From positions 93,999 through 157,998 of the forward strand of contig CAVYPM010000008.1 in assembly GCA_963770375.1 (NCBI GenBank): DNA of 64,000 bases. The letters are read 5' to 3'. This document shows positions 407-57,985 of the stretch, one piece after another (positions within the stretch are counted from its first letter, which is position 1; each line of letters begins with the position of its first letter). The DNA comes from an uncultured Actinomycetes bacterium. GTDB taxonomy: Bacteria > Actinomycetota > Actinomycetes > Streptosporangiales > Streptosporangiaceae. Under the pieces are notes generated by a model. That model searched no databases and was not told where the DNA came from. It saw only the letters and a program-made list of their open reading frames with translations. A program made the translations under genes and the position numbers.

Positions 407-1489
407 GTGCCTTCCTACGGGGGTCCCGTGCCTGACGCGAGCGACGGCCGAGACGAGCGCCGCCGTGCCGTGGTGGCGGCTATGGCCCCGGGCACCGCGC
501 TGCGCGACGGGCTGGAGCGGATCCTGCGGGCCAGCACCGGGGCGCTGATCGTCCTCGGCTACGACGACGCAGTCGCCGGGATCTGCTCCGGCGGTTTCCG
601 GCTCGACGTCCCGTTCTCCGCCACCAGGCTCCGCGAGCTGGCCAAGATGGACGGCGCGATCATCCTGGACGCCGCCGCGGACACGATCGTCCTCGCCGCG
701 GTGCACCTGATGCCCGACCCGGCGCTGCCCACCGACGAGTCGGGGACCCGGCACCGGACCGCCGAGCGGGTCGCCCGCCAGACCGGCCACCCCGTCGTCG
801 CGGTCAGCAAGTCGATGCGCACGATCGGCCTGTACCTGGACGGGACCCGCCACGTCCTGGAGGACTCGGTCGCCGTGCTGACCCACGCCAACCAGGCCCT
901 GGGCACACTGGAGCGCTACCGGATCCGGCTGGATCAGCTGTCCGGCTCGCTGACCGCGCTGGAGATCGAGAACCTGGTCACGGTCCGCGACGTGGCCGCA
1001 GCCGCCCAGCGGCTGGAGATGGTCCGCCGGATCGCCGCGGAGATCGAGGGCTACCAGAACGAGCTGGGCACCGGCGGCCGCCAGCTCGCCCTGCAGCTCG
1101 ACGAGCTGGTCGCCGGCACGGCCGACGAGCGCGAGCTGCTCATCCGCGACTACGCGCCGGCCGTGGACGCGCTGGCCGGGCTCGCCCGGCTGTCCCCGGA
1201 CGAGCTGCTCGACGTGGCCACGGTGGCGGCGGCCCTCGGTTTCGGCCCGCCCGGCACGCTGGACGACGCGGTCAGCCCGCACGGCTACCGGCTGCTGGCC
1301 CGGATCCCCCGGCTGCCCAGGGACGCCGCCGAGCGCATCGCCGCCTGCTTCTGCGGCCTGCAGAAGCTGCTCGCCGCCGGGGTCGAGGAACTCCAGCAGG
1401 TCAGCGGCATCAGCCCGGCGCACGCCAGGATGGCCAGGGAAGGCCTGTCCCGCCTCGCCGAGTCGGCCATCCTCGACCGCTTCGGCTGA
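407..1489 (+). CDS. disA: DNA integrity scanning protein DisA (diadenylate cyclase, c-di-AMP synthase)
   Basis: 360 aa. APGTALRDGLERILRASTGALIVLG...DGAIILD...DESGTRHRTAERVARQTGHPVVAVS aligns along its full length with M. tuberculosis DisA (DAC domain plus C-terminal HhH). GTG start at 407; an alternative ATG lies ~25 codons in. Confidence 0.85.
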   Translation: MPSYGGPVPDASDGRDERRRAVVAAMAPGTALRDGLERILRASTGALIVLGYDDAVAGICSGGFRLDVPFSATRLRELAKMDGAIILDAAADTIVLAAVHLMPDPALPTDESGTRHRTAERVARQTGHPVVAVSKSMRTIGLYLDGTRHVLEDSVAVLTHANQALGTLERYRIRLDQLSGSLTALEIENLVTVRDVAAAAQRLEMVRRIAAEIEGYQNELGTGGRQLALQLDELVAGTADERELLIRDYAPAVDALAGLARLSPDELLDVATVAAALGFGPPGTLDDAVSPHGYRLLARIPRLPRDAAERIAACFCGLQKLLAAGVEELQQVSGISPAHARMAREGLSRLAESAILDRFG

Positions 1490-1570
1490 ACCGCCGCCGG
1501 CCGCTCCGAACCGCCCTGTGCCGTTCTGGCGTGCCGGGGCCGCCCGGGACCATGCGAGGATCGGCTGGTT

Positions 1571-2440
1571 ATGGGAAACCGGTATCTCGAGCCCGTACTG
1601 GCCTGGTACGGCGCCCAGGCCAGGGACCTGCCGTGGCGCCGCCCGGACGCCTCCCCGTGGGCCGTCCTGGTCAGCGAGTTCATGCTGCAGCAGACGCCGG
1701 TCAGCCGCGTCCGGCCGGCCTACGCGGCCTGGCTCGAGCGCTGGCCGGACGCGCCGGCCCTGGCCGCAAGCCCGCCCGGCGAGGCGGTCAGGCAATGGGG
1801 CACGCTCGGCTATCCGCGCCGCGCGCTGCGGCTGCACGAAACGGCGCGGATCCTTACTAAGAATTACGGTGGGCAGGTGCCGGCCTCGGTCGCCGAGCTG
1901 ATCCTGCTGCCCGGCGTGGGCGCCTACACCGCGGCCGCGGTGGCCAGCTTCGCCTACCGGCAGCGGCACGCGGTGCTGGACACCAACGTCCGCCGGGTGC
2001 TGGCCCGGCTGGAGCGGGGCCAGGAGTTCCCGCCCCGGTCGGCCACCGCCGCGGAGACCGCGCTGGCCCAGTCGCTGCTGCCCGGCGACGGCCCGCAGGC
2101 GGCCCGCTGGTCGGTAGCGGTGATGGAGCTGGGCGCGCTGGTCTGCACGGCCACCAGGCCCAGATGCCCGGCCTGCCCGGTGGCTGCCCACTGCGCCTGG
2201 CGCCGGTCCGGCGCCCCCGCCGGGCTGCGCGCCCCCGGCCAGCCCAGATACGAAGGCAGCGACCGCCAGTGCCGCGGCCGCCTGCTGGCCGTCCTGCGCG
2301 CCGCAGGCGGCCCGGTCAGCGCGGACCAGCTCGCGCAGGCCTGGCCGGACGCCACCCAGCGAGCCCGGGCCCTGGACGGCCTGGTCGCCGACGGCCTGGC
2401 CGAGCCGCTGGAGGACGACCGCTTCGCCCTCCCGGCCTGA
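1571..2440 (+). CDS. mutY: A/G-specific adenine DNA glycosylase MutY
   Basis: HhH-GPD fold (LPGVGAYTAAAVASFAY) and a C-x6-C-x2-C-x5-C 4Fe-4S loop (CTATRPRCPACPVAAHC); same position as Rv3589. Confidence 0.85.
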   Translation: MGNRYLEPVLAWYGAQARDLPWRRPDASPWAVLVSEFMLQQTPVSRVRPAYAAWLERWPDAPALAASPPGEAVRQWGTLGYPRRALRLHETARILTKNYGGQVPASVAELILLPGVGAYTAAAVASFAYRQRHAVLDTNVRRVLARLERGQEFPPRSATAAETALAQSLLPGDGPQAARWSVAVMELGALVCTATRPRCPACPVAAHCAWRRSGAPAGLRAPGQPRYEGSDRQCRGRLLAVLRAAGGPVSADQLAQAWPDATQRARALDGLVADGLAEPLEDDRFALPA

Positions 2441-2457
2441 TCCCAGCCCGCAGAAAG

Positions 2458-2493
2458 CAGCCAGCCGGCCTCCTGGTGGAGGCCGGCTGGCTG
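2458..2493. terminator. Perfect 13-16 bp GC hairpin between convergent mutY and clpC1 (bidirectional terminator)
   Basis: ccagccggcctcc tggt ggaggccggctgg; no U-tract, as is usual in actinobacteria. Confidence 0.55.
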
Positions 2494-2534
2494 GCCGTGC
2501 TGGTGGCGGGCCGGTCCTGGGGCCGGCCTGCCCG

Positions 2535-5093
<2,559 letters not shown>

Positions 5094-5330
5094 CTCGTCG
5101 CTCCCTCACAGAGCGGTCGGGTAGGCGTACTGCCCTGTCCTTCCGCATGCTAGCCCGCGTGCCGGGCGACGTTCGCACAAGCAATATGTCGCTCATGTAA
5201 AACGTTCCCCCACCACGTGGCGTTCATCCCATCCAACTGGTGGAACCCGAGGTGGTGTTCCCAGATACGCCGGGAGCGAACGCGCTGCCGGGAGATGTAC
5301 AGACCGGCCTCCGGCGGAGCCGGCCAGCTC

Positions 5331-5425
5331 GGAGGGCCGCGGCGCTGTTTCCGACGAGCGATGAGGCGCGACGAAGGAGCGCCGAGGGAGCGAGGAGGGA
5401 AGGCAGCGCTCAAGCGGCCCACGAG
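5331..5425 (+). repeat. Copy A of a ~95-nt purine-rich, SD-like-rich conserved element in the clpC1-lsr2 intergenic region
   Basis: ggagggccgcggcgctgtttccgacgagcgatgaggcgcgacgaaggagcgccgagggagcgaggagggaaggcagcgctcaagcggccc is ~93% identical to 55634-55730 in the same orientation. Internal complementarity (GGCGCU...AGCGCC) is present. Confidence 0.6.
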
Positions 5426-5574
5426 CCAGCCAGCACTGCCCGAGCGAGCCAGACAGCACAGCGCACCGCGCGGGTTCGCGCGGTGCGCTGCTGGCCTTGC
5501 TGCGCTGCGAGCGGTCACCTACCCGGCCGGGGGATGCGGGTCAGGCCCGCGCGTCCCCTGGGCACGGGTGGTGC

Positions 5575-5907
5575 TCAGTGGGCGGCCTCGTACTCCTGGA
5601 TGATCGTGGCCGGGATACGCCCGCGCTCGCTTACCTTGTGACCCTTGTCGCGGGCCCAGGCGCGGATTTCCGCGCTGCGCTCGCGGCCCGGGCCGCTGCG
5701 GGCCCGGCGGCGGCGGGCGACGGAACCCGCACGGCGGGCATTGCCGGTGTACGCGCCGAACTTGTCGTGCAGTTCCTTGGCGTGTGCCGTGCACACGTCG
5801 ATCTCGTAGGCAGTTCCCTCAAAGGAGAACGAAACCGTCTCCTTACTCAGGACCTCGTCATCGTGCGGAAGGTCGCAGACGACAGTCGTTGTAATCTTCC
5901 GTGCCAT
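5575..5907 (-). CDS. lsr2: Nucleoid-associated protein Lsr2
   Basis: 110 aa. MARKITTTVVCDLPHDDEV...EIRAWARDKGHKVSERGRIPATIIQEYEAAH matches the Lsr2 N-terminal dimerisation and C-terminal AT-hook-like DNA-binding domains. AT-rich upstream region. Confidence 0.9.
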   Translation of the reverse strand: MARKITTTVVCDLPHDDEVLSKETVSFSFEGTAYEIDVCTAHAKELHDKFGAYTGNARRAGSVARRRRARSGPGRERSAEIRAWARDKGHKVSERGRIPATIIQEYEAAH

Positions 5908-6517
5908 GGGTCCAGCCCTTCCGCTACAGCCAGCTTATTAAGGTTTGCCAAACATATACCAGGACCGTTGCGTTTGACAATTGCGACGGCGATGATTGTG
6001 CTAGCTAGTTGCCCCGAACAGGCGAATGACGGCATTCCGGAAGGCCCACGTAACTCTCCGTAATCAGCGCCGCTTAGTGCCCCACAATGCTGATGCACGG
6101 CTGCGATGCAAGGCTGACTAGCGGCTACTGGCGAGGCGCGGAACCGCGCTCAGTGGTTTCCGCATGCCCTTCCTTGGGAGTTTCGCCAGCACTGCCTGTG
6201 ACAGTGCCATCGATTGCAGTATCGCCGATCCCGGCGGCGCCGCGATTCGGCTCGGCCGCGTCGTCCTCGTCGCCGCCGCGGCGCGAGCCCATCTCGTGGC
6301 GCAGGAACGCGCCCACCGCGACCAGCACCGCGACGCAGATCACGGCCGGCGGGATCAGTGCCGCCAGGTCTGCGTTCACGGCCCGCCTCCCGTCTGCGAC
6401 TCACTGAATACCGGCTGGCCGCGGGCCTGGCGCCGGGCAACTGCGGCTACCGGCTCGCACTGGCATTGTCACTCATCGCAGTGGCGGCCGCGGCACCGGG
6501 TCCGGCCTGGCCGGCCG

Positions 6518-9500
6518 ATGCGGGCGCCACTGACAGCACGCCGTGGCACTATCGGACCGCCCCCTCCGCGCGCCGCCGTCCCAGGAAGCAGGCCCTGTTC
6601 GTTGTTCCGTGCCGACCTGCACATCCACTCCCGGTTCTCCCGTGCGTGCAGTAAGAACTGCGACCTCGAGCATCTCGCCTGGTGGGCCCGGCGCAAAGGA
6701 ATCACAGTGGTCGGGACCGGGGATTTCACCCACCCGGCGTGGACCGAGGAACTCGCCGATTCCCTAATTCCCGCCGAGCCAGGCCTTTTCCGGCTGCGCG
6801 GCCCACTCGAAGATCAGCTGCGCCGGACCTCGCCGCCGAGCTGCACCGGTGAGGTCCGATTCATGCTGTCGTCGGAGATCTCCACGATCTACCGGCGCGG
6901 CGATCGGACCAGGAAAGTTCACCATCTGCTCTACGCACCGGACTTCGCCGCGGCAGGCCGGATCACCGCTGCGCTATCGAAGATCGGCAATCTGGCGTCC
7001 GACGGCCGGCCGATCCTTGGGCTCGACTCGCGCGATCTGCTGGAGATCGTTCTGGATAGCGGCCCGGGCAGCTATCTTGTCCCGGCGCACGTTTGGACGC
7101 CCTGGTTCGCGGTCCTTGGCTCCAAATCCGGCTTCGATCTGGTCGCGGACTGCTACGGCGATCTTGCCAGCGAGATATTCGCGATCGAGACCGGCCTGTC
7201 GTCGGACCCGGCGATGAACTGGCGCTGCTCAGTGCTGGATGGCTACCGGCTGGTGAGCAACTCCGATGCGCATTCCCCGCCGATGCTGGGGCGCGAGGCC
7301 ACTACGTTCGGTACAGCGCTTGATTACTTCGCGATGGCCGATGGACTGCGCACCGGCAACGGCCTGATTGGCACCATCGAGTTCTTTCCCGAAGAGGGCA
7401 AGTACCACCTGGATGGGCACCGGAAGTGCGGTGTACGGCTGGAGCCCGGCCAGACCAGGAAACAGGGCGGGGACTGCCCGCGGTGCGGGCGGCCGCTGAC
7501 CGTCGGCGTGCTGAACCGGGTGACCGAGCTGGCCGACCGGCCCGAGGGCTACCGGCCGGACGGCGCGCCGGAGGCCGTCAACCTGGTCTCGCTGCCGCAG
7601 ATCGTCGGCGAGGTGCTGGCTGCCGGGCCGCAGAGCAAGAAGGTCACCACGGAGGTCACCCGGCTGGTCGCGGCGCTCGGCCCGGAGCTCGACCTGCTGA
7701 CCGTGGTGCCGCCCGGCGAGCTGAGCCGGGTGGCCGGCAGCACCGTGGCCGAGGCCATCGCCCGGCTGCGGCGCGGCGAGGTGCAGCGGACCGGCGGCTT
7801 CGACGGCGAGTACGGCACGGTCCGGCTGTTCGGGCCCGGCGAGCTGACCGCGGCGGGGGCTCTTTTCGACGTTCCCGCGACCAGGAGCGCCCCGCCCGGC
7901 CAGGACGGCCAGGACGGCCAGATCCCGGAGACGGATCCGGGCCACGGGGCCAGCGGGCCGGATCCGGACGGCCGGCGCCGGGCCACGGGCACCGGCCCGC
8001 CCGCCGGCCCCCGCACGGGCCAGGAAACGGCACTCGACCCCGATCAGCTCGCCGCGGTCCAGGCGGCCAGCCCGCTGATGATCATCGCGGGGCCCGGTAC
8101 CGGCAAGACCCGCACGCTGGCGTACCGGATCGCCAGGCAGATCGCTGACGGGCTCCCGGCGCAGCGCTGCCTGGCGGTGACGTTCACCCGGCGGGCGGCC
8201 GGCGAACTTCGCGCCCGTCTGGACAGCCTTGTCCCGGGCTCCGCGGGACAACCATGCGTATCCAATTTTCATGGGCTAGGGCTGCAGCTGCTGCGTGAGT
8301 ATCCGGAGCGAGCGGGGCTGACACCAGAATTTTCCGTGGCTGACGAGGCCGCGGTAGCGGAGGTGGCCGCCGGGCTGGCCGGGTCGGCGCGGGCCGGGCG
8401 GCGGCTGCTGGCCGAGGCGGCCACGGACCCGGACCGCCGTGCGGAGCTGACGGCCGCACTGCGGGCCAGGGATCTGGTCGACTTCGACGGGCTGATCGAG
8501 CTGGCCGCCGGGCTGCTGCGCGGCGACCCCGGCCTGGCCGCGCGGATGCGCGAGCGCTGGCCGCGGATCAGCGTGGACGAGTACCAGGACATCGACGCGG
8601 CGCAGTACGAGCTGCTGGCCCTGCTGGCCGGGGACGGCACCGGGCTGACCGTGATCGGCGACCCGGACCAGGCCATCTACGGGTTCCGCGGCGCGGACGT
8701 CGGGTTCTTCCTGCGCTTCGGCGAGGACTACCCGGGGGCCACCACCTGCCAGCTGACCAGGAACTACCGGGCCACCGCGGCGATCGTGGCGGGCGCAACG
8801 GCGGTCATCGCCCCGGCCACGCTGGCCCCAGGACGGCTCCTGCACGCGGTCAACGGCGGCGGCGCGCCGATCACCCTCCACGAGGCCGCCGACGAGGCCG
8901 CGGAGGCGGCCTGGATAGCGGCGTCGGTCGACCGGCTGCTCGGCGGGGTGTCGCTGCACTCGATCGACAGCGGGCGGGCCGACGGGCACGCGGTGGATGG
9001 GGTCAGCCTGCGCGACGTGGCCGTGCTGTACCGCACCGACGGCCAGGCGGCCGCGCTCGGCCAGGCGCTGGGACGGGCCGGGCTGCCGTACCAGAAGGGC
9101 TCGCACGACCTTCTGGCCCGCCGGACCGGCGTCGCTGACCTGGTCGCCGAACTGCGCCGCGCCGCCACCGACCCGGCCGCTCCCGCCGACCCGGCCGCTC
9201 CCGCCGGCCCGGCTGATCCGGACGTGGCGGAGCGGCTGCGGGCGGCGGCCCGGCGGCTGACCGCGGGTGCCAGCCCGGGGCGGGCCACGGACCTGCGCTC
9301 GGCGGCCGCGGCGCTGTCGCCGCTGGCCCGCCGGTGCGGCGGCGACCTGACCGCTTTCCTGGCCGAGATCGCTCTCGGCGCCCAGGCCGACGCGCTGGAC
9401 CCGCGGGCCGACGCGGTCACCCTCCTGACCCTGCACGCGGCCAAGGGCCTGGAGTTCGACGTGGTGTTCCTGGCCGGCTGCGAGCGTGGCCTGCTCCCGC

Positions 9501-10124: not shown

Positions 10125-10310
10125 GGCTGCCCCCTGAGACAGGCCGGTGACACCCGCCGAGTTCCTGGTGTGTGCTCGCATGCACCGGGGAGCCGGGGAC
10201 CCACCGTTCCCCGGGGTGAATCGGCTGGCTCCGGCCCTGCCCCAGGGCCGTACCAGCCGTAGGGCTCCTCCAGCCCGAACCCGTCAGCTAACCCGGTAGG
10301 CGGCCGAGGA
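10125..10310 (+). promoter_or_regulatory. ydaO/kimA-class c-di-AMP riboswitch in the 5' leader of the NlpC/P60 gene
   Basis: CCGGGGUGAAUCGG (compare GGGGUUAAUC) and CCCGUCAGCUAACCCGGUAGGCGG (compare CCCGACAGCUAACUCCGGAGGC) match the crystallised T. tengcongensis c-di-AMP riboswitch. The element ends at the RBS GGAGGAGAGGAGCAGC just before the start codon. 5' boundary is approximate. Confidence 0.7.
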
Positions 10311-10322
10311 GAGGAGCAGCAC

Positions 10323-17087: not shown

Positions 17088-18067
17088 GCCCAGCCGCCCA
17101 GGCCCGCCGGGACGGCGCCTTCCGGTCCGGGGCCGGTCTGTGCCGCGGCGGCCTGCCGCCAGCGGGCCGCGACCCGGACCGCGTCGGCGCTGGCCGCGGC
17201 GGCATGCACGCGCACGCACCAGGCCCCGGCGGCCGCCGCCAGCGCGGCCACCGCGAGCGAGGCCTCGTCCCGGCCCTCGGCGGGCCGCGGCTGCCCGTCC
17301 GGGTCCGCCAGCAGCTGGCCGAGGAAGCTCTTCCTGGACGCGCCCACCAGCAGCGGGAACCCGGGACCGGCCCGGTTCAGCCGGGAAACCCGGGGCAGGT
17401 CGGCGAGCAGCGCCCAGTTGTGCCCGGCCCGCTTGGCGAACCCGATCCCGGGGTCGATCACGATCCGGGCCGGGTCGATGCCCGCGCCGGCCGCCGCGTC
17501 GGCCTGCTGCGCCAGTTCGGCGCAGACCTCGGCGACCACGTCGGTGTAGCGGGCCAGGTCGCCCATGACCGCGCTGGGCCCGCGCCAGTGCATGATCACG
17601 TACCCGGCCGACGCGGCCCGCACCACCGCGTGCATACCCGGATCGGCCAGGCCGCCGCTGACGTCGTTGACCATGACCGCGCCGGCCGCCAGCGCGGCCG
17701 CGGCCACCTCCGCGCGGGTGGTGTCGATGCTGACCGTCAGCCCGGCCGAGACCAGCGCGGTGACGACCGGGCCAACCCGGCGCAGTTCCTCGGCCCCGGT
17801 GACCCGGCCCGCGCCGGGCCGGGTGGACTCCCCGCCGACGTCGATGATGTCGGCGCCCTCGGCGGCCAGCGCAAGCCCGTGCGCTACCGCGGCGTCGGGG
17901 TCCAGCCACCGGCCGCCGTCAGAGAACGAGTCCGGGGTGACGTTGACCACGCCCATGACCAGGCAGCGATCCAGCGCGGGGCGCCCGCCCAGGCCGGGCG
18001 GGCCAGGCCAGGCGGGCGGTGTGCCCTCGTGGCCCGTGGTGCCGGTGGTGCCTGTCATAGAGGCCAA
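17084..18067 (-). CDS. folP: Dihydropteroate synthase
   Basis: VMGVVNVTPDSFSDGG...DVGGESTRPGA...DPGIGFAK aligns with M. tuberculosis FolP1. The true start may be ~30 codons inside the ORF. Confidence 0.85.
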   Translation of the reverse strand: MASMTGTTGTTGHEGTPPAWPGPPGLGGRPALDRCLVMGVVNVTPDSFSDGGRWLDPDAAVAHGLALAAEGADIIDVGGESTRPGAGRVTGAEELRRVGPVVTALVSAGLTVSIDTTRAEVAAAALAAGAVMVNDVSGGLADPGMHAVVRAASAGYVIMHWRGPSAVMGDLARYTDVVAEVCAELAQQADAAAGAGIDPARIVIDPGIGFAKRAGHNWALLADLPRVSRLNRAGPGFPLLVGASRKSFLGQLLADPDGQPRPAEGRDEASLAVAALAAAAGAWCVRVHAAAASADAVRVAARWRQAAAAQTGPGPEGAVPAGLGGWA

Positions 18068-20226
18068 TCTATGGCAGTGCTTGCTGGCTCGCGCAGGGCC
18101 GCTGGAGAGGCGCTACCTTCCCGGCGCACCCGCGGCGCTCCGTCGTCGCGCGGTGATCGTCGGGAAACAGCGCGGCGGCACGGCTCGTCTGCCGGCACGT
18201 CAGGCCCGCCCCTGCAGGATGGTCCGGCGCTCGGTTCCATCTCGGCGGAGATCTCGGCGACACCCCGGCGGGCCTCGGCGTCCCCGGACGCGGCGGCCGG
18301 GCGGGCGGCCATCATCGTGCGCAGCACCCGGCCGCGGCGCAGCCGTCCCAGGCCCGCCTTGCGGGTCAGCCGCCGGACCTCGATCCGCGGCCAGACCAGG
18401 AACGCCTCGGCCTCCAGTGCCGCCAGCCCGATCCGCGGCGTGTAGCCGGTGCCGGGGAAGACCATGAACCGGGGGATCCAGTCCGGCTGGAACTTCGCGT
18501 TGAACTTGTACAGCGACTCGATCTGGAACCAGCGGGACATGAACAGCAGGATTCCCCGCCAGGCGCGCAGCACCGGGCCGGCCCCGATCCGCTCGCCGCG
18601 CTCCAGCGCGGACCGGAACGCCGCGAAGTTCAGCGAGATCCGCCGGACGCCGAGGTCCGGGGCGTTCTTGATGGCCTCCACGATGAGGAAGTCGTTCACG
18701 CCGGCGGCCGCGGACTTGTCCCGCCGCATCAGGTCGAGCGAGAGGCCGTCCTTGCCCCACGGCACGAAGTGCTGGATGGCCCGCAGCTCGCCGTTCTCCA
18801 TCGCGGTGGCCACCACGCAGCGCTCGTCGCCGACCCCGCCGATCCGGCCCAGGGCCATCGAGAAGCCCCGCTCGGTCGAGCCGCCCCGCCACGAGTCGGC
18901 CAGCTCGGCCAGCGCCCGCAGCTCCTCCCGGCTCAGGTCGCCGGTGCGGCGGAACTCGGCGGTGTAGCCGTTCCTGGCCACCCGGGTGACCATCTGCCGG
19001 ACGTTGCGCATGGCCCGGCCCTCCAGCGAGAAACCGTCCACGTTCACGATGGCCTCGTCGCCGAGCTCGAGTGCGGCCAGCCCGCCCTCGCGGCACCACA
19101 CCTCGGCGCCCAGCTCGCCGCAGCCGACCACGGCGGGCACCCAGGCGTGCCGGGCCGCCTCGTCCAGGAACGCGTGGATGGCCCCGGGCCACGCCTCCGG
19201 GTCGCCGATCGGGTCCCCGGCGGCCAGCATCACCCCGGACAGCACCCGGTAGCCGATGCAGGATTTGCCGGTCGGCGACCAGATCGCGCTCTTGTCGTGG
19301 CGCAGCGCGAAGTAGCCGAGCGAGTCCTGCGCGCCGTGCCGGTCAAGCAGCTTCCTGATCTTGTCCGCGTCGGCCGGGCTGTGGCGGCCGGCCGGCGCGG
19401 CCGGGCGCAGGAACAGGTAGGCCGCCACCACCAGCGTGAAGATGCCCAGCGCGCTGGTCAGGAAGTTGAACAGGTCACCGTGGCCCTCCGGGCCGAACTG
19501 CACCGGGCCGGAGATGCCGACCAGGCCCCAGATCACCGACTGACCCCGCTCCAGCAGCGAGTAGTCCTCCTCCAGGCCGCGGCTCAGCATGATGAAGGTC
19601 AGGCCGATGACCAGGTCGGCGAGGATCAGCCAGCCCAGCGCGGTCAGCGCCCGCCACTGGCTGCGCGGGTCGCCGACCGCGTAGAACTCACGGCGGAACA
19701 CCAGCAGTACGCAGAGCAGGACGAAGGTCGCCGCGGCCTGGCCGACCCGCGGGAAGTGGGTGGCGTGCAGCACCGTGCTGCACGCCAGCAGCACGACCGT
19801 GGCCTGGAAGGCCCGCCGCTTGCGCCGCCGCAGCCCGTCCGACAGCAGAACCAGCAGCAGGCCGGTGATGACGTCGGCGGTCCTGGTCAGGTTGACCAGC
19901 GTGCCGGGGGCCAGGTAGCCGACCCGGTGCAGCCGGTAGTGCGCGTAGAAGCCGGGGTTGGCCCCCTCGATGATCGTGACCAGGCCGATCAGCAGCAGGA
20001 TCCACCGCGCGGCCGCGGGCACCCAGCGGCGCTGGCGCCGCCGCTCCGCGGGCCGCCCGCCGCCGGGCTTGCCGTCCGCGCCGCCCCCCTTCGCGGCCTT
20101 GTCCTTGGGCGCCGGCTGGGCAGGCGAAGGCGCCCGCTTGCCGCCCTGGGCCGTATCACCAGGGGCAGCCTGACGGGCTTCACCGCGCTCAGTCATCTCA
20201 GACATTCTGGTCGGGCCCTCGATCAC
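18055..20226 (-). CDS. MprF/LysX-like membrane protein: multi-TM flippase-like domain plus DUF2156 aminoacyl-phosphatidylglycerol synthase domain, with no fused LysRS
   Basis: About eight TM helices followed by GFSMALGRIGG...DFLIVEAIKNAPDLGVRRISLNFAAFRS...FQIESLYKFNAKFQPDWIPRFMVFPG (DUF2156). The ORF ends at the folP start, so no tRNA-synthetase domain follows. Confidence 0.7.
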   Translation of the reverse strand: MIEGPTRMSEMTERGEARQAAPGDTAQGGKRAPSPAQPAPKDKAAKGGGADGKPGGGRPAERRRQRRWVPAAARWILLLIGLVTIIEGANPGFYAHYRLHRVGYLAPGTLVNLTRTADVITGLLLVLLSDGLRRRKRRAFQATVVLLACSTVLHATHFPRVGQAAATFVLLCVLLVFRREFYAVGDPRSQWRALTALGWLILADLVIGLTFIMLSRGLEEDYSLLERGQSVIWGLVGISGPVQFGPEGHGDLFNFLTSALGIFTLVVAAYLFLRPAAPAGRHSPADADKIRKLLDRHGAQDSLGYFALRHDKSAIWSPTGKSCIGYRVLSGVMLAAGDPIGDPEAWPGAIHAFLDEAARHAWVPAVVGCGELGAEVWCREGGLAALELGDEAIVNVDGFSLEGRAMRNVRQMVTRVARNGYTAEFRRTGDLSREELRALAELADSWRGGSTERGFSMALGRIGGVGDERCVVATAMENGELRAIQHFVPWGKDGLSLDLMRRDKSAAAGVNDFLIVEAIKNAPDLGVRRISLNFAAFRSALERGERIGAGPVLRAWRGILLFMSRWFQIESLYKFNAKFQPDWIPRFMVFPGTGYTPRIGLAALEAEAFLVWPRIEVRRLTRKAGLGRLRRGRVLRTMMAARPAAASGDAEARRGVAEISAEMEPSAGPSCRGGPDVPADEPCRRAVSRRSPRDDGAPRVRREGSASPAALREPASTAIDWPL

Positions 20227-35644: not shown

Positions 35645-38116
<2,472 letters not shown>

Positions 38117-39635: not shown

Positions 39636-39712
39636 CGGGGTGTGGCGCAGCTTGGCAGCGCGCTTCGTTCGGGACGAAGAGGCCGCCGGTTCAAATCCGG
39701 CCACCCCGACCA
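39636..39712 (+). tRNA. tRNA-Pro (anticodon CGG), CCA encoded
   Basis: Acceptor CGGGGTG/CACCCCG, D-arm GGCGCAGCTTGGCAGCGCGC, anticodon stem-loop CTTCG-TTCGGGA-CGAAG, T-arm GCCGGTTCAAATCCGGC, then ACCA. Confidence 0.85.
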
Positions 39713-55415: not shown

Positions 55416-55633
55416 TCGATCCAGGCCCGGGCCGCTGGCCCCCAGATCCCCAGGGTCTGGCGGTGCATTTCCTGTTCCCTGAACATGGCCACCTCCTGGT
55501 GGCAGCGGCCGCACTAGGCCGGGAGCCGGCCCCTGGAACGGACCGCCGTTCCCGATCCAAGCCTGGCACCGCGCAGTCCCGAGGACAATGGCCAGCCAGC
55601 CATTTCGGCCGGCGGAGCCGGCAGTAAGCTCGC

Positions 55634-55730
55634 GGAGGGCCGCGGCGCTGTTTTCCTGACGAGCGATGAGGCGCGACGAAGGAGCGCCGAGGGAGCGAGG
55701 AGGGAAGGCAGCGCCTCTCAAGCGGCCCGC
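55634..55730 (+). repeat. Copy B of the ~95-nt purine-rich element, ~95 nt upstream of a four-gene hypothetical operon
   Basis: ~93% identical to 5331-5425 in the same orientation. Followed by the hairpin ggacgca-N13-tgcgtcc and an AT-rich leader before ATG 55825. Confidence 0.6.
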
Positions 55731-55824
55731 AGCGAGCGGCTAGCACAGAAGCGGTGGCGGGCCGGCGGGACGCACGGAATACTCGCTTGCGTCCGTTATC
55801 GGCCGATCTAGGGATTTCAGGAAA

Positions 55825-56142
55825 ATGGCTCCTGATCTTGAGGTCAACCTCAGCCTCCTGGAGAGCACCGCCGGGTCGCTGAGCATGCTGATTGAGGAGT
55901 TCACGAACGCCTCGGACATCGAGTCGTCCTATGAGGCCGCGGTTGGCGAAAAGAACCTGGTGAGCGCGCTGCATTCGTTCACGAGCAACTGGAAAGCGCA
56001 CCGCGAGGACATGATCAAATCAATGCAGGACGTGTACAAGATGGCCACTCAGAGCCATCAGGCCTACCTGGACACCGACGACAAGCTGGCCCAGGACATC
56101 AGGGCGGACACGTCGGCGGCGGCGCCGGGCGGCCCCCGGTGA
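55825..56142 (+). CDS. Small all-helical hypothetical protein (105 aa), first gene of the operon
   Basis: MAPDLEVNLSLLESTAGSLSMLIEEFTNASDIESSYEAAVGEKNLVSALHSFTSNWKAHREDMIKSMQDVYKMATQSHQAYLDTDDKLAQDIRA. Lower GC; good RBS context. Helical-hairpin size class similar to WXG100-like proteins but without a WxG motif. Confidence 0.5.
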   Translation: MAPDLEVNLSLLESTAGSLSMLIEEFTNASDIESSYEAAVGEKNLVSALHSFTSNWKAHREDMIKSMQDVYKMATQSHQAYLDTDDKLAQDIRADTSAAAPGGPR

Positions 56143-56625
56143 CCCCGCGGCCGCCGGACTTCGAGCCACTGGCCGGGTCCGACCCGGTGCCCGGCGACCC
56201 GGACCGGGTCGCTGCGCGACGCCAAGGCGGCGGGCGGGCTTGACGTGCTGATCAGCGTCGCGGAGAGCCACGGCGTGCCGATCGCGGCCTCCTGCCTGAT
56301 CACCTACCTGGACCAGGACGGGACGAAGGTGCCACTGGACGGCCTGCTCATGGACCTGGCCGCCCGCGGCGGGCAGGTCACCGGGACCGAGATCGCAGGC
56401 GCCCCGGCCATCAGGCGTCAGTACGAGGTCCTTCCGCCGGAAGGCAGCCTCCCCGGCGGCCAAGAGCCGGTCTCGACCAGGGTGACCATGGTCGACTTCT
56501 TCCTGCCGCTGCCGGGCCAGCCGGGATTGCTCGTGCTGTCGTTCTCCACCCCGGTGGAGCCGCTGGCCGAGGCGCTGGTCATGCTGTTCGACGCGATCGC
56601 GGAGTCGCTGCGGTGGACCCGGTGA
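56139..56625 (+). CDS. Hypothetical protein; GTG start overlapping the upstream stop (GTGA), with an apparent +1 frameshift near 56215-56230
   Basis: VTPRPPDFEPLAGSDPVPGDPDRVAA... (frame 56139) joins ...DAKAAGGLDVLISVAESHGVPIAASCLITYLDQDG... (ORF 56245-56625) if one nucleotide is removed from the gcgcgacgcc run. Confidence 0.4.
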
Positions 56626-57227
56626 CCGCGTTCGCGCTGCCCCCCGTGGTGGTGGACTACGACGCCCACTGGGTGGAGGTGGACCTGCGCGGCGACGCCG
56701 GCCAGTGGGCCCAGCGGGCCGCCGCCGAGGTGCTGGCCCGGTCCGGCGAGCCGGCCCGCGGGGCGGACGCCCGGCAGCTGGCCAAGCTGTTCGCGGCCGC
56801 GGGCGCGATCGCCCGGCGGGCCCAGGACGCCACGATCTCGCTGCTGCTCTACCCGGGCCCGGAGTTCGGCGTCCGGGCGATCGCCCGGTTCTGCCCGGTC
56901 GACCTGTCCGGGCAAGACGGCGACGACGCCTGGGCCGGCCTGGAGAGCATCGCCGTGGTGGACCTGCCCGGCCAGGAGCCGCCGGAGATCACCGAGCTGG
57001 ATTCCGCGGCCGGTCCCTGCCGCCGGGTCCGCCAGCTGGTCGCCGACGGCGATCAGCCCGAACGGCCCGTGTCCGAGCACCTGGCCTACCTGTGGCTGTT
57101 CCCCGACTACGGCGCGGGCGTGATCCTGGCCACCGCGTTCAGCGACCTGGTCCAGGCCGGCCGCTGGCGCCCGGTCCTCGACGACCTGGCCACCACCGGG
57201 GTGACCCTCCGCCAGCCCGGCGAGTAA
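56613..57227 (+). CDS. Hypothetical protein (204 aa); overlaps the previous gene by 13 nt
   Basis: No recognisable family. Acidic, not Arg-rich. Overlap suggests translational coupling. Confidence 0.45.
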   Translation: MDPVTAFALPPVVVDYDAHWVEVDLRGDAGQWAQRAAAEVLARSGEPARGADARQLAKLFAAAGAIARRAQDATISLLLYPGPEFGVRAIARFCPVDLSGQDGDDAWAGLESIAVVDLPGQEPPEITELDSAAGPCRRVRQLVADGDQPERPVSEHLAYLWLFPDYGAGVILATAFSDLVQAGRWRPVLDDLATTGVTLRQPGE

Positions 57228-57316
57228 CCGGGCCGACACGGACCGCTGACCCAGCCGTTCTTTTCCGGCTCAAACTGAGAGGCCGCCGGGCCGTCCGGAC
57301 CGGTAGAACAGGGACC

Positions 57317-57985
57317 ATGGCCGACACGAACGCGGGAACCGCAGCGCAGGACGGCACGGGCCAGGAAGGCACACTGCCGACGGTGGCCATCGAGGGCCCG
57401 GCGGCGCGGGCGCTGGCCGAGAGCGCCGCGGTCATCGGCGACCTGCAGTTCGTGATGGAGTGCTGCAAGCGGCTGCTGACCGAGCTGGCCGCGCCCGAGG
57501 AGGAGCGGGACCCGCTGGTCCCGCAGGCGCTGTGGTCGGCCGCGCTGAACGGGTACGCGCGCTGCTTCGGCAAGGGCAGCCGGCCCGGGCTGACCCTGGA
57601 CGACGTGCGCGCGCTGCCGCTGGAGGGCGAGGTGGTCAAGTACCACCAGTGGCTGCTGGCCGAGCGCAGCCGCCAGGCCACGCGGGCCACCAGCCCGTTC
57701 GACGAGGTCAGGATCGGCGCCGTGCTGTCGCCCCGGCACTCGCCGGAGCGGAAGCTGCGCGGCATCGCGATCCTGCCGGTCAGCCACGTGCTGGTCGACG
57801 AGACCGGGGTACGCCAGCTCGGCGGGCTGGCCGCCGAACTGGCCAAGCAGGCCGCGGACCGGGCCCAGAAGCAGCAGGAAACGGTGCTGGCCGAGGCCAC
57901 CCGCCAGGACCTGGCCGCGCTGGACAAGCTGCCGCTGCTGCGCATGCTGACCCCCGCCGACGAGGCCGCCGCCCGCGACGCCTAG
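57317..57985 (+). CDS. Hypothetical protein (~222 aa)
   Basis: MADTNAGTAAQDG...VIGDLQFVMECCKRLLTELAAPEEERDPLVPQALWSAALNGYARCFGKG... No family recognised. The ORF's upstream 200 codons are Arg/Pro/Gly-rich and were rejected. Confidence 0.45.
   Translation: MADTNAGTAAQDGTGQEGTLPTVAIEGPAARALAESAAVIGDLQFVMECCKRLLTELAAPEEERDPLVPQALWSAALNGYARCFGKGSRPGLTLDDVRALPLEGEVVKYHQWLLAERSRQATRATSPFDEVRIGAVLSPRHSPERKLRGIAILPVSHVLVDETGVRQLGGLAAELAKQAADRAQKQQETVLAEATRQDLAALDKLPLLRMLTPADEAAARDA

Follow-up and report, generated by a model that had tools for sequence, protein, structure and literature searches.

The 64,000-nt stretch of DNA analysed here (the window) carries three copies of a repeat unit that forms a ~100-nt imperfect hairpin with a purine-rich, near-invariant centre. 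We assign these copies, with a probability of roughly 0.7, to a lineage-specific, non-coding, non-autonomous family of dispersed repeats in a Streptosporangiaceae soil bacterium, that is, to selfish DNA. The family is most likely a new one of REPIN/BIME-like type, and its unit a small parasitic mobile element rather than a regulator or an sRNA gene. Short hairpin repeats of the REP, REPIN and BIME types have been studied mainly in Proteobacteria; the literature that was searched held no description of this family, nor of any REP/REPIN/BIME-type family in Streptosporangiaceae.

Repeat Unit and Boundaries

A preliminary description of the window had reported a ~95-nt element present twice, at 5331–5425 and 55634–55730, in direct orientation, with ~93% identity and small indels. 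The similarity of these two copies (A and B) is confirmed, with 91 of 100 aligned columns identical; the internal differences are all small indels and the remainder lie at the ragged 3′ end. Both copies share a 62-nt core that is identical apart from a T-run, and a 40-mer from this core has exactly two matches in the window, a count reached in 0 of 100 dinucleotide-preserving shuffles. Outside the element, similarity collapses within ~30 nt on each side, which rules out a larger duplicated segment. The length required revision: a profile built from many copies extends both units to ~130–150 nt (Table 1), adding a 5′ mini-hairpin (CCGGC-GGA-GCCGG) and a 3′ tail (CAGCNAGCACWG), and it also recovers a third, diverged copy (C). 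The motif GGCGCU...AGCGCC, which had been taken for a terminal inverted repeat, instead lies inside a far longer hairpin, GGGCCGCGGCGCTG...CAGCGC(N4-9)GCGGCCC, itself flanked by a further outer stem.

Table 1. Copies of the repeat family in the window, parts of copy A, and neighbouring features.
Feature	Position	Strand	Basis or remark
Copy A, full unit	5308..5440	+	nhmmer family profile, E = 9e-33, profile positions 9-152
Copy A, 5′ mini-hairpin (module H), CCGGC-GGA-GCCGG	5311..5323	+	conservation in almost all copies
Copy A, long imperfect hairpin	5327..5426	+	fold and covariation
Copy A, apical stem-loop GGCGC[GACGAAGGA]GCGCC	5365-5383	+	
Copy A, 3′ tail module CAGCCAGCACTG, end of element	5427..5438	+	consensus in 47/47 full copies
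Extra solo "S3 + tail" module CCCGAGCGAGCCAGACAGCACAG	5439..5461	+	in tandem after copy A; direct sequence reading
Copy B, full unit	55602..55750	+	nhmmer, E = 2.4e-44
Copy C, diverged and decayed	18065..18198	-	nhmmer, E = 7.3e-19
clpC1	2535-5093	-	Pfam families recorded for the same protein in public contigs
Strong hairpin 3′ of lsr2	5462-5487		
lsr2	5575-5907	-	Pfam families recorded for the same protein in public contigs
LPG-synthase-like ORF, 723 aa, immediately upstream of folP	18055-20226	-	copy C forms its last ~45 codons
ORF of 66-68 aa beside copy B	start at 55486-55492	-	
Gene of 105 aa beside copy B	55825-56142	+	start 75 nt from the profile end of copy B (55750) and 95 nt from the end first described (55730)

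Copy A was aligned with 41 other copies, and the consensus unit was derived from these 42 together with 32 more diverse ones. Read on the + strand, it comprises an optional CCAGCNAGCC; module H, GCCGGC-GGA-GCCGGC; module S5, AGCGAGCGCAG or AGCTCGCGGAG; GGCCGC-G-GCGCTG; TTTTCCY; GACGAGCGATGAG; the apical GGCGC[GACGAAGGA]GCGCC; GAGGGAGCGAGGAG; GGAAGG; CAGCGC; a hypervariable bulge of 4–9 nt; AGCGGCCC; module S3, TGCGCTCGCC, GCAGCGAGC or GGAGCGAGCC; and the tail, (C)AGCNAGCAC(A/T)G, also written AGCNAGCACWG. The family is thus built of the modules H, S5, core, S3 and tail. Conservation is much higher in the centre than in the outer stems, in part because of ascertainment, since exact core words served to find the copies.

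All 47 full copies that were examined have the tail consensus, and beyond it the flanking sequences part at once; flanks are unrelated as soon as CSG-CCGGCGG (5′) or AGCACWG (3′) is passed. Since the flanks diverge at unlike motifs (CSG-CCGGCGGAGCCGG at the 5′ end and AGCNAGCACWG at the 3′ end), the ends are asymmetric and lack terminal inverted repeats, all inverted repeats being internal. When the two flanks of one copy are compared, the longest substring they share is 3.87 nt on average over 47 copies, against 3.82 ± 0.14 nt for permuted pairs of flanks; own flanks therefore share no more than permuted ones, and there is no target-site duplication. Nor does a conserved 4–5-nt target precede the left end: 5′ flanks are heterogeneous beyond −3, and the only conserved positions, G at −1 and C at −3, probably belong to the foot of the hairpin. 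The CCAGCNAGCC found in a subset of 5′ flanks is the family's own tail motif.

These boundaries bear on the earlier suggestion of a MITE-like relic. In a classical MITE, the hairpin arms would represent the two terminal inverted repeats of an insertion sequence, fused together, and the DDE transposase of that sequence would mobilise the element in trans. The outer ~30 nt of the arms are indeed good inverted repeats (AGCGAGCGCAGGGCCGCGGCGCTG / CAGCGC..GCGGCCCTGCGCTCGC), and a size of 130–150 nt and an intergenic location are typical of such elements. However, the conserved unit passes the inverted repeats asymmetrically, with the mini-hairpin on the 5′ side and the tail on the 3′ side; target sites are not duplicated; the regions around core matches contain 0 loci at which the arms are separated by a gene; and double-strand cut-and-paste has no need of a strand-specific stem rich in purine-purine and U·G oppositions. 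We regard the classical MITE as quite unlikely. What holds of the suggestion is the broader sense of a non-autonomous dispersed repeat, supported by at least 46 exact-core copies at unrelated loci of a sister genome, by further copies in soil metagenomes, by presence and absence between strains, by partial tandem modules and by decay.

Copy Number and Distribution

Among 185,579 species-representative genomes, exact matches to a 23-mer of the core number 46, in 44 stretches, and all fall in one metagenome-assembled genome (MAG), that of Streptosporangiaceae bacterium SMAG_U1971; the exact scan found the word in none of the other 185,578. The lsr2–clpC1 locus of this MAG also carries the element and is 93–97% identical to positions 690–8558 of the window, which therefore derives from the same species as SMAG_U1971 or from a sister species. 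Many of the core matches in the MAG lie within 100 nt of contig ends, a position to be expected of a repeat at which assembly stops; the element is an assembly breaker, with many MAG contigs ending inside it. A profile search of 290 kb of MAG sequence around the core matches gave 63 full or partial matches, which include full copies without the exact 23-mer and many tandem partial modules. The counting of copies proposed in the preliminary description thus yields 46 exact cores in the related MAG and further copies in soil metagenomes (JGI, ENA), in which an 18-mer scan found at least 36 loci with true copies among the 120 loci listed; several subfamilies are represented among the matches listed. 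Viral contigs gave 0 matches in a scan with a degenerate 19-mer, and PLSDB plasmids and INPHARED phages gave none by blastn. The element's open frame, AAGGAGQRAQGRGAVFLTSDEARRRSAEGARREGSASPAALRSPAST, matched nothing in a protein search and therefore does not correspond to a recurrent annotated peptide.

The same data dispose of the possibility that the copies are an assembly artefact or parts of a larger duplicated segment. We found nothing that speaks for it, although the window probably stems from a metagenome assembly, metagenome contigs being the only records found that carry its proteins; the flanks of the copies are unrelated, independent JGI metagenomes contain copies at other loci, and the reading is refuted because independent assemblies from other samples carry the same copies at the same loci. 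Its probability is practically negligible.

Hairpin Fold and Strand Asymmetry

The stems of copy A run from an outer GCTCG/CGAGC through GGGCCGC/GCGGCCC and GCGCUG/CAGCGC to a U·G-rich UUUCC/GGGAA, and enclose inner arms in which purines face purines (GACGAGCGAUGAG / GAGGGAGCGAGGAG). The predicted minimum free energy of copy A is −70.3 kcal/mol, with z = −3.8 for the + strand and z = −2.3 for the − strand. Across the alignment, 93.5% of cells form standard pairs in the proposed structure, against 37–52% when the partners are slid by 1–3 columns; for helix 1, the 5′ mini-hairpin, the figure is 92–95%.

Covariation, the search for which had likewise been proposed, is evident in the outer stems. 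The outer stem occurs in two compensatory versions, 5′ GCGAGC with 3′ GCTCGC and 5′ GCTCGC with 3′ GCGAGC, and its pair counts include UA:22/GC:11, CG:23/AU:12 and CG:15/GC:14. Copies with 3′ GCTCGC always have GCGAGC as the 5′ partner (GCGTGC in a single copy), and those with 5′ GCTCGC, or its variant GCTCGT, always have GCGAGC on the 3′ side. The more diverse set of copies adds a GC:15/CG:7 flip at pair 57-132, beside the bulge, as well as changes from U·G to C-G. These covariations are subfamily-level and represent few independent events; they support the fold, and are no proof of selection on it.

In the canonical inner arms, 5′-GA-C-GA-GC-GA-U-GA-3′ stands opposite 5′-GA-G-GGA-GC-GA-G-GA-3′, such that four GA steps oppose GA steps with single Watson-Crick or wobble pairs between them. 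The position that is canonically A·G is C-G in 11 other copies, A-U in one and U·G in one, which demonstrates that the two purine-rich arms do lie opposite one another. The opposed GA steps, which ViennaRNA leaves as small internal loops, would form tandem G·A pairs. In one metagenome variant the inner stem is fully Watson-Crick (CCCGGCGAGCG/CGCTCGCCGGG), which suggests a more perfect palindrome as the ancestor of the family.

The fold of the + strand is more stable than that of the − strand in 42 of 42 copies; the mean energies are −66.3 (+) and −51.1 (−) kcal/mol under RNA parameters and −31.6 (+) and −28.2 (−) kcal/mol under DNA parameters. This asymmetry arises because the wobble pairs of the + strand are without exception U·G and become C·A mismatches on the complement, where the G·A steps in turn become pyrimidine-pyrimidine mismatches. 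The folding strand may act as ssDNA or as RNA.

Tests for an RNA Gene or Regulator

The preliminary description had proposed a small RNA gene or a cis-regulatory RNA, noting that the purine-rich strand contains SD-like motifs and that its complement is CU-rich and anti-SD-like. The purine strand might then act as an SD-like sponge, or the complement as an anti-SD regulator, of a multi-copy sRNA or cis-regulatory RNA that at copy A would control clpC1 or lsr2. Several GGAG/GAGG motifs are indeed present, though nothing links them to translation, and a strand-asymmetric fold with U·G pairs and compensatory changes would suit an RNA. Against this, an Rfam 15 search of the whole window at the gathering score detected nothing in the elements (only a c-di-AMP riboswitch and a tRNA elsewhere), and even at E ≤ 10 no match around copy A overlapped it, the only ones being chance matches on the lsr2 hairpin. 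Simple scans, which are weak for actinomycetes, found no promoter-like site at copy A or copy B; the one terminator-like match, on the + strand at 55630–55645 inside copy B, does not exceed what is obtained from shuffled sequence. In addition, copies lie sense or antisense to their neighbours without preference and at variable distances, some are inside ORFs, tandem partial copies exist, and close strains lack the element in a lsr2–clpC1 spacer that is otherwise near-identical. An sRNA or cis-regulatory function is therefore very improbable. A likeness to the hammerhead ribozyme (CUGACGA...GAA) was also considered and rejected: many copies have C in place of U4, and there is no match to a covariance model.

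Genomic Context, Strain Variation and Decay

Copies are mostly intergenic. Among the 28 full copies with neighbouring genes called on both sides within 300 nt by a crude, home-made gene caller, 10 lie between convergent genes, eight are tandem-sense, six tandem-antisense and four lie between divergent genes; one-sided contexts show no orientation preference, and distances to genes vary.

In the window, copy A occupies the spacer between lsr2 and clpC1, downstream of the strong hairpin that follows lsr2, and its better-folding strand is antisense to both genes. The earlier placement of copy A in the clpC1 leader, on the opposite strand, thus stands as regards strand, and nothing shows a position inside the leader; the ~215 nt of the spacer proximal to clpC1, upstream of the gene, are nearly invariant among strains and presumably comprise the promoter and leader of clpC1. 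One contig that encodes exactly the window's Lsr2 contains copy A. Six further contigs that encode an identical Lsr2 lack ~90 nt of copy A, the remaining spacer being near-identical, and in SMAG_U1971 the spacer contains the element with extra 5′ modules in tandem. The shortened alleles retain the 5′ mini-hairpin and two tails, reading ...CCGCCGGCGGAGCGAGCCAGCCAGCACTG (half of the mini-hairpin, S3 and tail) and then a second tail, and they keep the solo S3 + tail module that follows copy A in the window. In many full copies CGGAGC words stand on both sides of the core, and a deletion between these words would yield just such an allele. A clean empty site at this locus was considered and rejected, as the mini-hairpin and two tails remain. 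The polymorphism of copy A may accordingly represent deletion of the hairpin rather than insertion, a direction that the available strains do not polarise, and it documents instability, not necessarily transposition. Given such variation between close strains, the element could be used as a strain marker.

Copy B, in a divergent intergenic region, is present in nine of the nine orthologous metagenome contigs that reach the site. Copy C retains ~80% similarity to the consensus but not the purine tract, and folds no better than shuffled sequence (z = 0.35); in two contigs from other strains, found by looking up FolB, it is shorter and further decayed. Partial modules, tandem or nested, are common in the family. 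At three loci the arrangement resembles a nested insertion into the apical loop; we make no such claim, since slippage between short internal repeats explains it equally well.

Copy C belongs to an open reading frame, and the element can supply coding sequence to genes. A copy in the MAG lies seemingly in-frame in the TMD-NBD linker of an ABC exporter, with ~45–50 extra residues relative to paralogues, in an arrangement reconstructed by joining two MAG contigs that overlap in the element.

Context and conservation together might be taken to indicate a structural element used by the host, REP-like, which would, for instance, stabilise or terminate transcripts at their 3′ ends or provide a site for a nucleoid or topology protein, and whose centre would be kept by host selection. 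Consistent with this, the copies are enriched between convergent genes (10/28, against 4/28 divergent) and near stop codons, copy B is kept in all strains sampled, the hairpin is very stable (z scores from −3.6 to −5.4), and a core that is near-invariant and better conserved than the outer stems could indicate a host-level function. Yet only one strand folds well, while orientation to the upstream gene is near random; strains with identical Lsr2 do without copy A; copy C is decayed and has lost its fold; and the family occurs in 1 of 185,579 species representatives. We consider such a host function unlikely. It would be compatible with a mobile origin of the element.

Returning to the dispersed selfish repeat, copy A at lsr2–clpC1 is a tolerated passenger for which no regulatory role is needed as an explanation. 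This removes a false lead, in that an element found near clpC1 and lsr2 is a passenger repeat and no regulator of either gene.

Proposed Mobilisation

Our proposal is that the element, as selfish DNA, depends for its copying in trans on an enzyme whose gene lies elsewhere in the genome. This enzyme would act on the single-stranded hairpin of the + strand in the manner of REPIN/RAYT or of an IS200/IS605-type HUH enzyme. The near-invariant centre would be the part recognised by this enzyme or by a replication step, and would be uniform because only intact copies found new ones. Copies would later be reshaped by slippage and by deletion between short internal repeats; the partial tandem modules fit slippage between the short repeats GCCGCGGCG/GCCGGCGG, CGGAGC and GGGAAGGCAGCGC.

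The lack of terminal inverted repeats and of target duplication, together with a stem that is stable on one strand only, argues against DDE cut-and-paste and points toward a single-strand hairpin substrate. Given that the family is a dispersed repeat, a single-strand HUH-type mechanism is possible, and we hold it only tentatively, as the search for an enzyme was negative: when ORFs around ~100 copies (~290 kb of MAG loci plus metagenome loci) were clustered, no mobilising enzyme emerged, and the clusters near copies comprised only ABC transporters and orthologous housekeeping genes. A crude HUH-Y1 regular expression likewise found nothing in the element-bearing slices of the fragmented MAG or in the metagenome loci. 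Clusters that a first pass had offered as partner genes were rejected, being merely ORFs that run through the element.

A more specific proposal, which we consider doubtful, is that the hairpin is the substrate of an Actinomycetota transposase specific for single strands (HUH/Y1-type or other), or a functional RNA module spread by one. If true, this would be the first REPIN-RAYT-like vertically inherited replicator in Streptosporangiaceae, with an architecture inverted relative to REPINs, the centre conserved and the foot variable. The purine-purine hairpin that forms on one strand only points to a single-strand mobilisation mechanism and is, together with the machinery that spreads the element, the most interesting aspect of the family.

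Comparison With Known Repeat Systems

Functionally and architecturally, the closest known system is that of the REPINs (PMC3116915). REPINs are described as doublets of REP sequences that form hairpins and are mobilised by RAYT tyrosine/HUH transposases in Pseudomonas and E. coli (PMC3116915, PMC5581495). As in the present family, they are ~100-nt non-coding extragenic units in tens to hundreds of copies, with a long predicted ssDNA or RNA hairpin, two-sided compensatory changes and an asymmetric single-stranded tail; they are likewise confined to one lineage, lack target-site duplications and at times form clusters. The REP ends are the most conserved part of a REPIN and the spacer is variable (PMC3116915), whereas in the present family variation falls on the outer stems around a near-invariant centre, and the inner arms set purine opposite purine instead of being inverted copies. 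The cognate RAYT (Y1/HUH) gene of a REPIN system is usually single-copy, with the repeats on its flanks; no RAYT gene was found in the loci searched here, and the two systems share no sequence similarity. The main text of the RAYT survey nowhere mentions actinobacteria, its taxonomic mapping being given in a supplementary figure (PMC5581495). Membership among the REPINs is therefore not claimed, as no RAYT was found in these loci, the pattern of conservation is inverted and sequence similarity is lacking.

Elements of the IS200/IS605 group and their miniature derivatives (PATEs) have asymmetric hairpin ends, no terminal inverted repeats or target-site duplications, and one active strand. The present family resembles them in its asymmetric ends, its lack of terminal inverted repeats and target-site duplication, and its strand-specific folding; a single active strand would explain why G·T and G·A are tolerated in the stem on one strand only. 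It differs from them in having no conserved 4–5-nt 5′ target and no TnpA or TnpB nearby, and in that its main hairpin is central, not subterminal, accompanied by a 5′ mini-hairpin and an unstructured 3′ tail.

The BIMEs of enterobacteria, the RIMEs of rhizobia and the BOX elements of pneumococci are mosaic intergenic modules, often at the 3′ ends of genes. These are unrelated to the present family in sequence and belong to hosts of other phyla, and the family forms a single long hairpin in place of alternating short palindromes; it is like them in being composed of a few modules in variable number and combination, with tandem partial units.

Rickettsia palindromic elements (RPEs) are palindromic, ~100–150 nt long, and can be in-frame inside coding genes. 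Their sequences are unrelated to the family described here, which is mostly intergenic and has only one or two coding cases; these cases, in which copy C provides the C-terminus of the LPG-synthase-like ORF and a MAG copy lies in the ABC exporter linker, are the point of likeness between the two.

Repeat copies within coding sequences

The predicted C-terminus of the LPG-synthase-like protein is repeat-derived and strain-variable. In the window, the last ~45 codons and the stop of the 723-aa ORF come from copy C, the decayed copy of the repeat, and this stop codon overlaps the start region of folP. In L065 and L066, which represent related strains, the predicted homologue is 687 aa long and ends at a TAG within these strains' shorter version of the repeat. 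The MAG, a repeat-rich genome of the same or a sister species, encodes an ABC exporter with what appears to be an in-frame repeat insertion in the linker between the transmembrane domain and the ATPase domain; relative to two paralogues, the linker would have ~45-50 additional residues (GRGAVFLTSDEARRRSAEGARREGSAHSGPERASQHS), provided that the join between L031 and L026 holds. This join connects two contig ends whose overlap falls within the repeat, and because the same sequence is also found at the end of a third contig (L062), it is possible that the joined exporter is a chimera.

Gene content beside copy B and other window features

In most strains, as in the window, the 105-aa gene beside copy B is followed by a gene of 436-466 aa. 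At the corresponding position in L012, this larger gene was not called and a 45-aa ORF alone is listed, versus L011 and L013 (orthologues of about 56142-57500 in the window), which may reflect a strain-specific deletion or frameshift. Elsewhere in the window, the c-di-AMP riboswitch scores 70.5 bits, against an Rfam gathering score of 38. A run of GGC/GGT triplets (37967-38101), detected as eight overlapping copies of a 51-nt unit, probably encodes a glycine-rich protein stretch.

Features of the window and of the MAG (positions refer to the window unless a public locus is named)
Feature	Position	Strand	Remarks
CGC-N5-GCG motif, GTTCGCTCCCGGCGTA read on minus strand	about 5266-5282		Invariant region, clpC1-proximal to copy A
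GC-rich inverted repeat CGCACCGCGCGGGTTCGCGCGGTGCG	5462-5487		~90 nt downstream of lsr2 stop; strong hairpin
c-di-AMP riboswitch, ydaO/yuaA type (RF00379)	10145-10318	+	70.5 bits, E = 2.5e-14
LPG-synthase-like ORF, 723 aa	18055-20226	-	Reads through copy C (18065-18198)
tRNA gene	39636-39709	+	Rfam RF00005, 64.1 bits
lsr2-clpC1 spacer, MAG orthologue	L034:3076-3400
ABC exporter with apparent repeat insertion	L031:26-174 joined to L026:4920-5034	-	MAG SMAG_U1971

The lsr2-clpC1 spacer

The MAG allele of the spacer that holds copy A has two to three additional tandem 5' modules (GCCGGCGGAGCCGGCCAGCGAGCAACGGGCCGCGGCGT) and a truncated 5' half, all preceding the full copy, so that the locus is in at least four structural states among strains. 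Every strain, and the MAG as well, retains the GC-rich inverted repeat downstream of lsr2, and all of the weak Rfam matches in the spacer fall on this hairpin; it is probably the lsr2 terminator, despite the absence of a T-run. The CGC-N5-GCG motif resembles the operator of ClgR, the controller of actinobacterial clp genes; if this likeness is right, the clpC1 promoter would lie between copy A and clpC1, placing copy A outside the clpC1 transcript.
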